A DNA stretch of 64,000 bases from Thermoanaerobaculia bacterium. GTDB taxonomy: Bacteria; Acidobacteriota; Thermoanaerobaculia; Gp7-AA8. The stretch spans positions 5,167,600-5,231,599 of the forward strand of contig OY970284.1 of the NCBI GenBank assembly GCA_963715895.1, written 5' to 3'. Positions 32,079-35,028 of the stretch are shown here, piece after piece; within the stretch, counting starts at the first letter, position 1; each line of letters begins with the position of its first letter. Position numbers and translations under genes: made by a program. The notes beneath the pieces are model-generated. The model ran no database searches. It was not told the DNA's origin and saw only the letters and a program-made list of their open reading frames with translations.

Positions 32079-32224
32079 GTGTATAACGAGTTCACATCCA
32101 TCATCGAGCAGGACGGCGAATGGTTTGTAGCCTACTCACCCGAGAGGACGCTCGCGAAAATCTGGCCGAGGCGATCGCACTCATCCTCGAAGATCTCCGC
32201 CAAACTAACCAGTGGGGAGTGTAG
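32079..32224 (+). pseudogene. Decayed HicB-family antitoxin remnant (internal deletion/frameshift)
   Basis: Frame A reads VYNEFTSIIEQDGEWFVAYSPE. After a frame change the sequence reads EDARENLAEAIALILEDLRQTNQWGV*. Together these resemble the two ends of about 70-aa HicB-like proteins with the middle missing. Confidence 0.45.
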
Positions 32225-32229
32225 TCACG

Positions 32230-32430
32230 ATGACGAGAGTTCAGGCGCTTGAACAAGAGATCGAACGGCTTTCCCCAGAGGAATTGGTGGAGCTGCGGGT
32301 GTGGCTTGACGAACGCGAAGCCGAAGCATGGGATCGCGAAATCGAACGCGATGCGGCATCGGGCAAGCTCGACAAGCTTTTCGAAAAGTCGATGGCAGAT
32401 CACCGCGCGGGTAAGAGCCGCGAGATTTGA
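32230..32430 (+). CDS. Putative addiction-module antitoxin
   Basis: The translation is MTRVQALEQEIERLSPEELVELRVWLDEREAEAWDREIERDAASGKLDKLFEKSMADHRAGKSREI. Its stop overlaps the toxin start (TTGA). Confidence 0.6.
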   Translation: MTRVQALEQEIERLSPEELVELRVWLDEREAEAWDREIERDAASGKLDKLFEKSMADHRAGKSREI

Positions 32431-32684
32431 AACACTACACCAGCCCGGATTTCTGGCACCTCTTCGACCGTCTTCCCTCGGATATTCAGACTCTCGCGCG
32501 CGAAAACTATGAGTTGCTGAAAGCCAACCCACGCCATCCATCGCTCCATCTGAAAAAGGCCGGAGAGTACTGGTCCGTACGAATTGGTCTCGGCTATCGT
32601 GCCCTTGGCAAGGACGTCGAAGGTGGCATCCTGTGGGGCTGGATCGGACTGCACGCCAAATATACGAGAATCCTTTCGTCTTAG
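32427..32684 (+). CDS. RelE/ParE-superfamily type II toxin
   Basis: The protein is 85 aa: FWHLFDRLPSDIQTLARENYELLKANPRHPSLHLKKAGEYWSVRIGLGYRALGKDVEGGILWGWIGLHAKY. The TTG start is coupled to the antitoxin stop. Confidence 0.6.
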   Translation: MKHYTSPDFWHLFDRLPSDIQTLARENYELLKANPRHPSLHLKKAGEYWSVRIGLGYRALGKDVEGGILWGWIGLHAKYTRILSS

Positions 32685-32692
32685 GACTAGCC

Positions 32693-33286
32693 ATGTTCAC
32701 CGGCATCATCAATCACAGCGGCATCATCGATTCTCTCGAACGCCTGGCGTCGGGAGCACGGTTGCGGCTGCGCACGACCGACAGCGAGCCGTTCACGCTT
32801 GGCGAAAGCCTGGCGGTGAATGGCGTCTGCCTGACCGTCCTGCCGCAGGAGGACGGCATGCTACTCACCGATGTCTCCAACGAAACGCTCGCGCGCACGA
32901 CGCTGGGCGCGCTGACCAGCGGCGCGCGCGTGAACGTCGAGCGTGCCATGGCCCTCGGCGATCGCCTCGGCGGGCATCTCGTCCAGGGACATGTCGACTG
33001 CGTCGGGACGCTTCTGTCGATCGCCCCCGAGGGCGACTTCGCGGTCTATCGCTGGAGCTGCCCGGCCGAATACAAGGAGCTCATCGTCGACAAGGGCTCG
33101 ATTGCCGTCGACGGGGTGTCATTGACTGTCGTCGATCCGGACAGCGCGAGCTTCGGCGCGGCGCTGATTCCGGAGACTCTCCGCCGCACAAACCTCGGCG
33201 ATGCCGCGATCGGCGACCGCGTGAACCTCGAGCTGGACATGATCGCCAAGTACGTCCGTTCGCTCGTAGCGCCGTATTTGCGGTAG
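32693..33286 (+). CDS. ribE: Riboflavin synthase alpha chain
   Basis: MFTGIINHSGII...GESLAVNGVCLTV...GSIAVDGVSLTV shows the duplicated Lum-binding repeats. The ATG at 32693 is preferred over the track start. Confidence 0.9.
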   Translation: MFTGIINHSGIIDSLERLASGARLRLRTTDSEPFTLGESLAVNGVCLTVLPQEDGMLLTDVSNETLARTTLGALTSGARVNVERAMALGDRLGGHLVQGHVDCVGTLLSIAPEGDFAVYRWSCPAEYKELIVDKGSIAVDGVSLTVVDPDSASFGAALIPETLRRTNLGDAAIGDRVNLELDMIAKYVRSLVAPYLR

Positions 33287-33310
33287 CGCAGTCTCGCGGT
33301 CTCGCGGCAT

Positions 33311-33726
33311 GTTCCTCCGCCTGCGTGTCGTGTTCCTCCGCCTGCGTGTCGTGTACCTTCGCCCGCGTGTCGTGTACCTTCGCCCGCGTGTCGTGCTCCT
33401 CCGCCTGCGTGTCGTGTACCTTCGCCCGCGTGTCGTGCTCCTCCGCCTGCGTGTCGTGTACCTTCGCCTGCGTGTCGTGAACCTTCGCCTGTGTGTCGTG
33501 AACCTTCGCCTGCGTGTCGTGTCCCTCCGCCGGCGTGTCGTGTACCTTCGCCTGTGTATCGTGTACCTTCGCCTGCGTGTCGTGTTCCTCCGCCCGCGTG
33601 TCGTGTACCTTCGCCTGCGTGTCGTGTACCTTCGCCTGCGTGTCGTGAACCTTTGCCGGCGTGTCGTGTACCTTCGCCGGCGTGTCGTGTTCCTCCGCCT
33701 GCGTGTCGCGTTACTCCGCCTGCTGG
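33311..33726. repeat. 21-bp tandem repeat array (about 19.5 units), non-coding minisatellite
   Basis: The unit consensus is GTACCTTCGCCTGCGTGTCGT, with variants GTTCCTCCGCC, GCTCCTCCGCC, GAACCTTCGCC and GTCCCTCCGCC. Units follow head-to-tail with no spacers. All six frames are open across the array. Confidence 0.95.
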
Positions 33727-33984
33727 ACAAAACCGCGGGGGGTCACACCTTCGTATTTCGCAGAGCGCTAAACCACTGACCTCGCACGACTTGAGCACAT
33801 CAAGATCAACGCCGCGACCAGTCAGGTAGTTATTCGCATTTCACCGTCGCCGGGAAATGTCGCGCCGTATTTGCGGTAGCGCAGGAACGCTGTTTCGCGG
33901 CATTGAAGGTCGAGTTGCCGCGAGACCCCGCAACCGGCAGACCCCGTAACCGCGTCCTCGCAACCGCGAATACACTGTCGCGGC

Positions 33985-35028
33985 GTGATCGTCTACAAGA
34001 AAACGCCGCATTTGCGCATCGCGCGCGCACAGGTGCCGGAGCCGCCGTACTGGGCAGCCTCAACGATTGCTCCGTACAGCCCCCGGCGTGCGGCGCCGAT
34101 CGCCGTCGACTACCTCGATCTTCGCGCTTCCTGCGCCGAGCGCTTCGAGGTCTCGGTCTGCGACAACGTCCGCGACGATCTGGATCGCAGCACGGCGCGG
34201 CATCCTCTGCACGCGCCGGCGCTGATCGATGCCGCCGAGTTCGCGGAAGTCATTTTCGGCCGCGGCGAGGAAGTGCTCCAGTTCTGCGCCGACCAGCACG
34301 TTGCGGCGATGCAGCTCGTTTCGGCGCGCGGTGCGCTGCCGGGGCAGGTTCCGGACAACACGGTCATCACCATCGCCGCCTGGCCGCTGGAGCTGGCGCG
34401 CCTCGGCGCTCTCTTCGCCGAGGCGAAAGAGCGCGGGCTGCGGTGGGGCGTGGTCATTCCGATCATCTTTCCGGTGACGACCGACCTCGCCGGCCTCGCC
34501 CAGCTCGCGGAGCTGGCCAAAACGTACGAGGCGTCGTTCTTTACCGGCGTTCCGATCGAGCTGGACGCCACGGCGCGCAACGCGCTGGCGCAATCGCTGA
34601 CCGGCGAGGTGCGCGACGATCACTTCGAGATGCTCTTCCACTCCGACCTCGGCCCCATACGGCTGGCCACCGAACGCCACATCGCCGCACTGGCCGGCGA
34701 GATCAACGCCGCCGACTTCGTCATTCCGCCGCGCTGGGACCGCCCGACCAATTGGAACGCCGCCGTTCTCCTCACGCTGACGGCCAGCCGCATCCTGGCG
34801 ATGAACCGCGACGAGGAGCTGGCCTGGCGACTGACCCGGTCGGCGAAAGTGGTGGCCTTGCTCGAAAAGCCGATCGAGCGCGTTGCGCAGGCCGCAAGTC
34901 TGTCGATCATCGACTCGCTCGACGAGATCAGCGTCGACCTGCTGACGGAGTGGCTCGAAACCGGCAGATCAAGCTTTGCCGGACACATCGAGAAGCAGTG
35001 GAGGCTCCGGAGGGATAGCGGGGGGTAA
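33985..35028 (+). CDS. Hypothetical protein
   Basis: The ORF is 347 aa with a GTG start and protein-like composition. No motif was recognised. Confidence 0.5.
   Translation: MIVYKKTPHLRIARAQVPEPPYWAASTIAPYSPRRAAPIAVDYLDLRASCAERFEVSVCDNVRDDLDRSTARHPLHAPALIDAAEFAEVIFGRGEEVLQFCADQHVAAMQLVSARGALPGQVPDNTVITIAAWPLELARLGALFAEAKERGLRWGVVIPIIFPVTTDLAGLAQLAELAKTYEASFFTGVPIELDATARNALAQSLTGEVRDDHFEMLFHSDLGPIRLATERHIAALAGEINAADFVIPPRWDRPTNWNAAVLLTLTASRILAMNRDEELAWRLTRSAKVVALLEKPIERVAQAASLSIIDSLDEISVDLLTEWLETGRSSFAGHIEKQWRLRRDSGG

Follow-up and report, generated by a model that had tools for sequence, protein, structure and literature searches.

In its home form, a class of tandem arrays found in the genome of a Thermoanaerobaculia bacterium is followed by (i) a consensus promoter; (ii) a conserved, structured leader of approximately 165 nt; and (iii) gene X, which codes for a small helical protein. 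These arrays amount to hundreds in one soil-bacterial lineage, they are intergenic and unrelated in sequence, and they keep one and the same period of two helical turns. Different genera share the same home position, in which the array precedes a promoter, a structured leader RNA and a multi-copy gene family as yet uncharacterised. This regularity provides a testable hypothesis, that of protein docking arrays with rapidly changing specificity, and flags two further unknowns, the leader RNA and gene X. No published description of such arrays in Acidobacteria or Thermoanaerobaculia was found in a literature search.

The array described in most detail here lies downstream of ribE, within a window of 64,000 nucleotides (the whole stretch of DNA that was analysed). 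The genome holding this 64-kb window (6.64 Mb) is designated G000; the other G-numbers denote comparison genomes, and none of the claims made here depends on the unpublished genome G030. By itself, the ribE array is a harmless insertion, hypervariable and of potential use as a typing marker. Its value is that of an entry point to the class-wide regularity.

The class of arrays and its home position

Whole-genome analysis of G000 with TRF yielded 1458 merged arrays. Period 21 dominates the long ones (231 TRF arrays, 92 of them of at least 200 bp), and periods 22, 42-44 and 63 come next, as higher-order versions. The class was defined by periods of 20-22 bp or multiples thereof (42-44, 63-66 bp), and in G000 it comprises 207 arrays of at least 100 bp that fall into 75 BLAST sequence families. 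Among the 166 arrays that reach 150 bp, a rough gene caller of our own places 158 between genes; by a similarly rough count, arrays are enriched between convergent genes (54 versus about 31 expected) and lie nearer to gene 3' ends. Palindromes make up the units of many other families, and their stems covary from one family to the next; the ribE-family unit is not palindromic.

The gene X superfamily is represented in G000 by 46 ORFs, as detected with an iterated HMM. A class array is present within 1.3 kb upstream of 35 of them and downstream of none (0/46), chance being about 6% per side. This home position, upstream of a small gene family, had been missed by the sequence-only reading of the window. 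When gene X copies are located by tblastn, 38 read away from the adjacent array and 5 toward it. The arrays linked to gene X span 30 families, more than the 25.0 +/- 2.4 obtained in permutations (P = 0.03). Some 80% of the arrays lie away from gene X.

Gene X shows a patchy distribution: in a sample of 31 genomes, each from a different genus, 8 have it, in 2-25 copies. An array upstream of gene X is also found in G005, G042, G045, G048, G053, G061 and G062, six of which belong to other genera. In these seven genomes, the arrays have a period of 21, 42, 43 or 63, lie 180-780 bp upstream and differ in unit sequence each time. Gene X is present in 31 copies in G014, 18 in G018 and 30 in G012. Regarding class arrays of at least 150 bp, samples of 400 kb contained 8 in G000 (with about 46 copies of gene X in the genome) versus none in G003 (same genus; one copy of gene X), G024 (another genus; no copy) and G036 (same class; no copy). 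Among the few genomes sampled, gene X copy number thus tracks array abundance. In G003, no array precedes the only gene X copy.

The home form can be read in detail in the family of the ribE array. The sequence-only reading had proposed a search for its unit elsewhere in the genome and, when the 416-bp array was used as a query against the 6.64 Mb of G000, 10 arrays of this family were recovered, the ribE copy included. In four of them, the array runs directly into TTGACA-N17-TAAACT (a sigma-70-type promoter) and then into the conserved leader, and one of these four carries an intact gene X of about 200 aa after the leader. In a fifth copy, the leader is gone and gene X persists only in an internally deleted form. 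In terms of cassettes, the family consists of one intact, three decayed (leader only or internally deleted gene) and six gene-less copies, and the decayed ones retain their arrays. The gene X of the intact cassette is at C1:3284576-3285328 and has been kept, together with its array, in G005, G006 and G014. The ribE array is among the six gene-less copies, with neither gene X nor a consensus promoter. Beyond these genomes, the two-unit pattern of the family was present in 3 MAGs among 185,579 species genomes, all of them titled 'Thermoanaerobaculia bacterium'.

The flanks of the family copies are modular (modL, modA, modB) and not constant from copy to copy. At the array junctions that were read, there is no common element end or target-site duplication. 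The decayed copy at the 5970769 site corresponds to an insertion of about 730 bp relative to G018, where the site is empty, and this insertion has no transposase-type ends and no target-site duplication.

As for the leader, 44 pairs are predicted along its approximately 165 nt, seven of them with compensatory changes, and no match was obtained in Rfam. The arrays change much faster than the genes: related arrays are detectable in only 8 of 18 pairs of gene X proteins of 72-86% identity, and no pair below 70% identity has more than 10% of array 9-mers in common.

Gene X has no match in Pfam, NCBIfam, PHROGs, PADLOC or a PDB-sequence profile search, and these domain and profile searches revealed no recognisable DNA-binding domain. 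In a protein atlas it appears only within 'hypothetical protein' clusters from Acidobacteriota, and all of its named homologues are entitled 'hypothetical protein [Thermoanaerobaculia bacterium]'. With a shallow alignment, AF2 gave no usable model (pLDDT 44). A second AF2 model is confident (pLDDT 78) and comprises a small helical domain at the N-terminus, a long hairpin of helices and a tail predicted to be disordered, basic and rich in proline. Compared with the PDB using Foldseek, this model gave no match at E <= 0.001 (best E 0.58); its best Z in VIA wide was 6.0, no more than helical models reach by chance. Downstream of several gene X copies lies a second helical gene. A weak Pfam Chap-C match is present in 7 of 36 gene X members (best E 0.0013).

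The ribE locus as a nested insertion

TRF places the period-21 array at 33310-33723, with 19.7 copies, 87% matches, 0% indels and a score of 590. The head-to-tail array of 21-bp units that the sequence-only reading had reported after ribE is real. The unit consensus over 33311-33726 is exactly GTACCTTCGCCTGCGTGTCGT, and two main unit types can be differentiated, GTACCTTCGCC... and G[TC]TCCTCCGCC... The plus strand is poor in A (one A in 21). The half that had been called invariant, GCGTGTCGT, is identical in 16 of 19 units, not in all of them. With up to one mismatch allowed, the 14-mer core occurs 18 times in the 64-kb window, always within the array (0.06 in shuffles). Unit positions 2, 3, 7 and 12 hold 26 of the 31 mismatches; most of the changes between units fall in the linker or at one degenerate core position. 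Such non-uniform variation could arise from the amplification of a few variant units instead of selection. Conservation per position was also computed across the ribE family; this analysis is biased by its anchoring on the core and, in consequence, it is not used as evidence of selection. As in a minisatellite or VNTR, the units fall within 10-100 bp, are arranged head to tail and lie in non-coding DNA, after the stop codon of ribE (33284-33286).

The array is not a gene. It contains 0, 3 and 0 stops in the plus frames and 1, 0 and 0 in the minus frames, so that four of the six frames, and not all six as had been claimed, are fully open; the five overlapping phantom ORFs that had been pointed out are indeed in the ORF list. 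These open frames exist because the strands are poor in A or T. When the frames were compared across 17 arrays of the family (10 in G000 plus 7 in G005, G014 and G018), none was open in all 17, the best one was open in 8, and several arrays had stops in all six, in agreement with the earlier non-coding call. The long minus-strand ORF already described as antisense to ribE (250 aa, 33046..33798, with RHAGEGT repeats) would run through ribE, and in G018 it meets a stop within the first unit. The reading as a protein-coding heptad repeat, for which the open frames and the five listed ORFs could be invoked, is thus refuted for the whole family by the frame test and keeps practically no probability. 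Annotators should be warned that open frames across arrays of this kind are phantom ORFs.

The array is not a CRISPR either, as had been stated: the units follow one another head to tail at a spacing of exactly 21 bp, and the spacers that define a CRISPR array are absent. An assignment to REP, BIME or REPIN elements was rejected too, in that these require a palindromic, hairpin-forming unit and the ribE-family unit is not palindromic and folds like its shuffles. Six-unit stretches of both strands have no hairpin potential (DNA fold z = +0.07, -1.6, +0.9 and +0.9 versus shuffles), and the 687-bp insert as a whole is less well folded than its shuffles (z = +1.8). Eight family loci were run against Rfam at E <= 1 with no relevant match, and a scan of 33100-34100 found neither promoter nor terminator.

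The array forms part of a nest of repeats (Table 1), which starts within the end of ribE and has altered its last codons (...APYLR* here versus ...APYIAR* in congeners). The true start of ribE is likely the ATG of MFTGII, inside ORF 32633..33286, and ribD is located upstream.

Table 1. Features of the ribE locus, in window coordinates
Feature	Position	Strand	Basis or detail
ribE (riboflavin synthase alpha chain)	32693..33286	+	Pfam Lum_binding, two stretches, E 1.3e-45
45-nt direct repeat, copy 1 (last 21 nt of ribE plus left arm of hairpin)	33266..33310	+	87% identity to 33859-33903
Whole insertion, 687 bp, a nest of elements	33278..33964	+	Comparison with the ancestral junction, where ribE and the gene after it are about 25 bp apart
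21-bp array	33311..33726	+	19 full units plus a 17-nt partial unit (sliced in the register of the sequence-only reading)
Post-array junction with TGGACA	33724..33739	+	Flank comparison of the 10 family copies
modB, truncated copy of a MITE-like module of about 135 bp	33740..33858	+	Copies in G000 and G018
45-nt direct repeat, copy 2 (duplicated ribE 3' end plus left arm of hairpin)	33859..33903	+	Repeat search
Loop (TGAAGGTCGAGT) and right arm of octamer-repeat hairpin (GCGAGACC / CCGCAACC / ...)	33904..33963	+	Inverted repeats
Conserved 347-aa gene, function unassigned	33985..35028	+	ORF list; follows ribE directly in relatives

The outermost component is a hairpin with arms made of octamer repeats, at 33287-33310 and 33916-33963. 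In its left arm, CGCGGTCT is repeated 2.6 times (33287-33307; TRF row of 8 bp), inverted repeats pair this arm with 33916-33936, and an RNA fold pairs 33298-33309 with about 33916-33927. The hairpin-arm segment is a dispersed repeat with about 60 BLAST matches elsewhere in the genome. Immediately after the array, TGGACA occupies the place that the -35 box TTGACA has in the gene-linked family copies, and no acceptable -10 box follows it.

Next comes modB, whose full copies have terminal inverted repeats of 13-14 bp. At ribE, the left one (GGGTCACACCTTCG) is present and the right one (CGAAGGTTTGACCC), kept in the full copies, is missing. A second, full copy in G000 (C1:3482899-3483034, 88% identical) also adjoins an array of the same family, as do the full copies at the ribE locus of G018 and at G018:C33. 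No target-site duplication was identified for modB. With only three inverted-repeat pairs in G000, it does not qualify as an abundant MITE.

The 45-nt direct repeat contains the end of ribE together with a hairpin arm and, hence, it looks like a scar of recombination or duplication instead of a transposon target-site duplication; Campbell-type integration would be compatible with it. Copy 2 is absent from the G018 allele, in which modB continues into its right end and the right arm of the hairpin. As G018 thus has array and modB inside the hairpin loop without the 45-nt duplication, this duplication would be a secondary scar.

The ribE-downstream spacer was compared in 18 genomes of the same genus. 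In 15 of them there is no insertion, the matches to the ribE side and to the next gene being 14-27 bp apart. Nine of the congener spacers were read directly and measure 25-26 bp, with the sequence ...GCGCCGTATATCGCGCGCTGAGACGCGAATACACTG...; they represent the short ancestral junction, and therefore 33278-33964 is lineage-specific. The suggestion that the array was part of an insertion is borne out by the absence of the 687-bp segment from these 15 congeners. In G009 the spacer is about 120 bp long, and in G012 it contains an unrelated insert of 719 bp. The only congener with an array at this site, G018, has one of the same family with 22.2 units in a different order, against 19.7 here, which upholds the earlier description as hypervariable or VNTR. 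This comparison of orthologous copy numbers consists of two alleles (19.7 and 22.2) plus a partial, G018-like metagenome allele, the only one that a metagenome scan provided. The closest relative at the locus, G014 (91-94% identity), has an empty site, whereas the more distant G018 (83-86%) has the insertion and the derived ribE end in common with G000. To judge from this distribution, the insertion allele has probably moved by recombination or is polymorphic.

The gene that follows has no match in Pfam, NCBIfam or PHROGs, is syntenic in all congeners and in three other genera, and is not a homologue of gene X. In the relatives it lies 25 bp from ribE and is probably co-transcribed with it, so that in G000 the insert must be read through or supply a promoter: either transcription passes through some 690 bp of repeats or the gene after them is transcribed from a start of its own. 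A link of the array to the riboflavin genes is not supported, and nothing about it is specific to ribE.

Proposed protein docking and the competing explanations

The favoured explanation, held with slightly less than even confidence, sees in the ribE array a copy, devoid of its gene, of a phased array that docks proteins and changes its copy number by slippage. A protein-binding array with two helical turns per unit had already been suggested from the letters of the window; this suggestion is now the preferred one, and the docking that it implies is putative. With units two helical turns apart, the roughly 15-bp core (CGCCNGYGTGTCGYG) would recur about 20 times along the same side of the helix, and the array would then provide many sites at which a protein could dock. 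The likeliest such protein would be the gene X paralogue of the ribE family (G000:C1:3284576-3285328); a protein of this type may act in trans on gene-less copies. The ribE copy would have arrived in a nested insertion of about 690 bp, comprising the array and the MITE-like module inside the loop of the octamer-armed hairpin, and its spread would be due to recombination, not to transposition. Whole units may be gained or lost by slippage or unequal exchange, and the copy would play no part peculiar to riboflavin synthesis. In short, we infer the protein binding, the action in trans on gene-less copies and the slippage dynamics.

Docking is supported because: (i) one two-turn period holds across 75 unrelated families; (ii) position relative to the promoter and polarity are conserved across genera and sequence is not; (iii) the units consist of a core of about 15 bp and a variable linker; (iv) the arrays linked to gene X span more families than predicted by chance; and (v) gene X copy number tracks array abundance in the few genomes sampled. 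The helical phasing of iteron-like or centromere-like arrays is found in the ribE array (period 21, no indels) and in the class (20-22, 42-44, 63-66 bp), and the location of the array at a promoter is found in the class and in the intact cassette of the family, but not in the ribE copy, whose lack of a consensus promoter counts against docking. So do the lack of a recognisable DNA-binding domain and of a significant structural match in gene X, the missing array upstream of the single gene X of G003, the location of about 80% of the arrays away from gene X, and the enrichment of arrays in convergent gaps, like that of tolerated selfish DNA. Besides, array turnover is much faster than that of gene X, which is awkward for strict cognate recognition.

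The main competitor, less probable than docking and yet a serious one, is a selfish or neutral minisatellite, i.e., intergenic DNA of fast turnover which has no docking function and survives where it is harmless. The link to gene X would then result from a cassette that duplicates and later decays, leaving arrays behind, or from a favoured upstream site. This would fit the large majority of arrays away from gene X, their enrichment in convergent gaps and near gene 3' ends, and their variable presence among close relatives (the ribE site is empty in G014 and the 5970769 site in G018). It would likewise fit the persistence of arrays in decayed cassettes, the lack of conservation of array sequence even between gene X copies that are 75-86% identical, and the fact that G000 and G018 carry unrelated arrays at the same spot. 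Nevertheless, neutral slippage leaves unexplained why 75 unrelated families have a period of 20-22 bp or multiples thereof, as well as the position relative to the promoter and the polarity kept across at least seven genera with unconserved sequence; nor do the junctions read show transposase-type ends or a target-site duplication. It is improbable that the main biological effect of the arrays is to act as a hot spot of recombination or insertion, that is, as sites where other repeats and genes land or are exchanged. Two different arrays do abut (<= 50 bp) 17 times, the nest in the ribE spacer combines four types of repeat here and has a relative in G018, the same spacer in G012 contains the unrelated insert, and at the orthologous spot of the 3483 locus G018 carries a different, unrelated 43/44-bp array. 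But no insertion sequence was found to split a same-family array in G000, and repeats are expected to cluster in safe intergenic sites without targeting. Nor are inverted flanks enriched (15 of the 207 arrays versus 9 in random controls); insertion into hairpin loops was discarded as a general rule.

An element acting at the RNA level, within the message of ribD, ribE and the downstream gene, is slightly more improbable still. It might be a spacer, a stabiliser, an attenuator or a sponge for proteins or ribosomes; the minus strand of the ribE array has about 20 GGAGG/GAAGG motifs, and the plus strand has CCTCC. The probable co-transcription of ribE with the next gene and the absence of any terminator-like site in 33100-34100 would agree with such a role. 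On the other hand, neither the array nor the whole insert has secondary structure beyond that of shuffles, Rfam provides no match, no common RNA motif is found among the other unit families and, in the home context, the promoter is downstream of the array, which therefore lies upstream of the transcript. The evidence for and against, taken together, leads to a ranking with docking in the lead, tentatively; then the selfish or neutral minisatellite, as an unlikely but weighty option; the hot spot and, close to it, the RNA element, both with a low probability; and the coding repeat, with a negligible one. A bolder proposal, rather unlikely, is an undescribed chromosomal system of Thermoanaerobaculia, in which dozens of gene X paralogues all of them small helical proteins, would each have their own fast-evolving array of about 10-25 docking sites, two helical turns apart, and a conserved structured leader, gene-less copies such as that at ribE providing further sites; or else a dedicated mechanism, tied to the module, that makes 21-bp arrays de novo from arbitrary seeds.

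Relation to known repeat systems

Known examples of repeat arrays beside the gene of a binding protein are plasmid iterons and Rep, parC and ParR, and sopC (12 x 43 bp) and SopB. By analogy, such direct-repeat operators or centromere-like arrays beside the gene of their binding protein seem to be the closest match for the arrays described here. In both cases, helix-phased direct repeats are located at or next to the promoter of a small gene, and the sequence differs between paralogous systems while period and position remain constant. They differ in that the arrays of G000 are chromosomal, with dozens of modules per genome, and have 10-25 units instead of 4-12; furthermore, about 80% of them are away from the gene and, in the home form, a structured RNA leader separates promoter and gene. 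KfrA of plasmid RA3 is an alpha-helical autoregulator that binds five 9-bp direct repeats (PMC7783346). Like gene X, KfrA is all-helical with a long helical tail, and a second helical protein, KfrC, is encoded beside it, just as a second helical gene accompanies several gene X copies. The KfrA fold consists of an N-terminal HTH and a long coiled-coil tail; the gene X model combines a small helical domain at its N-terminus with a long helical hairpin and has no significant structural match. In Pfam, gene X gave no match at E <= 0.01, and none to KfrA among 36 members at E <= 1. No similarity of gene X to Rep, ParR, SopB or KfrA was detected, its assignment to a protein family is not supported, and binding is here putative.

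The REP/BIME/REPIN elements and SMAG-type clusters also form an abundant, lineage-specific intergenic class enriched at gene 3' ends, and the many palindromic unit families of G000 with covarying stems are reminiscent of them. The ribE-family unit differs from these elements in that it is neither palindromic nor able to fold, and in that its copies are strictly direct and in register.

Mycobacterial MIRUs have units of 46-101 bp with short ORFs that overlap the stop codon of one neighbouring gene and the start codon of the other. Like the ribE array, MIRUs and other VNTRs are arranged head to tail at dispersed intergenic loci, operons included, and their copy number varies between relatives. 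In contrast to MIRUs, the unit is here 21 bp, there is no small ORF coupling the flanking genes, and the ribE array is parted from both of them by other repeats. At the level of the class, the differences are the 75 unrelated families with one period and the home position upstream of one gene family. The BOX elements of Streptococcus pneumoniae have a modular structure, boxA-(boxB)n-boxC, with a variable number of internal repeats. They too are dispersed, with a variable tandem core and reusable end modules (here modL, modA and modB), but the flank modules described here are not constant, the units are far more numerous and nothing in BOX elements corresponds to the link with a gene family. 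The ribE array behaves like bacterial minisatellites such as the MIRU-VNTR loci and is put together from modules in a manner reminiscent of BOX.

Gene X and its leader RNA

The products of gene X form a multi-copy family of small, predicted-helical proteins with a basic, proline-rich tail, for which neither a database annotation nor a structural match was found. The distribution of the family over genera is patchy: there are approximately 46 ORFs in G000 (the genome of the window) and, among its congeners, 31 in G014, 30 in G012, 18 in G018 and 1 in G003. A second, distantly related helical gene is often located 3' of gene X, and an nSTAND6-TPR gene adjoins one gene X copy.

Between gene X and the array-adjacent promoter lies a conserved and structured leader of approximately 165 nt, present in at least five genomes from several genera. 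According to alignment A2, which comprises the four leader loci of the table and 11 more, (i) a GCGGCC...GGCCGC stem closes the predicted structure; (ii) the GCGGGAGU/CUCCUCCUGCCG helix is invariant; and (iii) compensatory changes occur in 7 of the 44 predicted pairs. No Rfam match to the leader was found, and it is a candidate for a new cis-regulatory RNA.

Coordinates of the arrays, genes, leaders and inserts discussed in the text
Feature	Location	Strand	Remark
43/44-bp array with internal palindromes	L031:2700-3150 (G018:C40)		Unrelated to, and at the orthologous spot of, the array at G000 C1:3483054-3483559
Paired different-family arrays (examples)	G000 C1:2803579-2804554; C1:3160652-3161211; C1:5906455-5907038
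modL	G000:C1:2803470-2803584		~45 similar sites besides
Gene X copy	G000:C1:5338376-5338975 = L024:8092-8691	-	One of ~46 paralogues
Gene X paralogue (example)	G000:C1:3284576-3285328
Leader	L021:8759-8922	-	Alignment A2
Leader	L023:1556-1719	+	Alignment A2
Leader	L024:8757-8921	-	Alignment A2
Leader	L026:1579-1742	+	Alignment A2
Pair of overlapping small ORFs, 72 aa and 85 aa long	Window 32212-32684		ribD-ribE interval
Insert at ribE junction	L014 (G012:C54)		Unrelated to G000 insert; ribE-to-downstream-gene spacer 719 bp

Array turnover and neighbouring repeats

Since G000 and G018 carry unrelated arrays at an orthologous spot, different families substitute for each other at one intergenic position. 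Throughout the G000 genome, arrays of two different families lie no more than 50 bp apart in 17 places, and there are 825 short arrays with a period of 7, 8 or 14-16. The element modL, a dispersed REP-like hairpin pair (CCCCCGCTGGAAAGCGCGGGGG plus GCTCTCGAGG...CTCGAGATC), borders four ribE-family arrays as their left flank; many other loci carry it as well.

An insert and a possible insertion around ribE

The overlapping ORFs between ribD and ribE are possibly a toxin-antitoxin pair inserted in the rib operon, the second one being weakly ParE-like (PF24732, E 1.1e-4, just under the Pfam cut-off). Within the G012 insert at the ribE junction, REP-like hairpins and an apparent small ORF on the minus strand were observed; octamer repeats (CACGCAACC) end this insert, adjoining the gene downstream of ribE.
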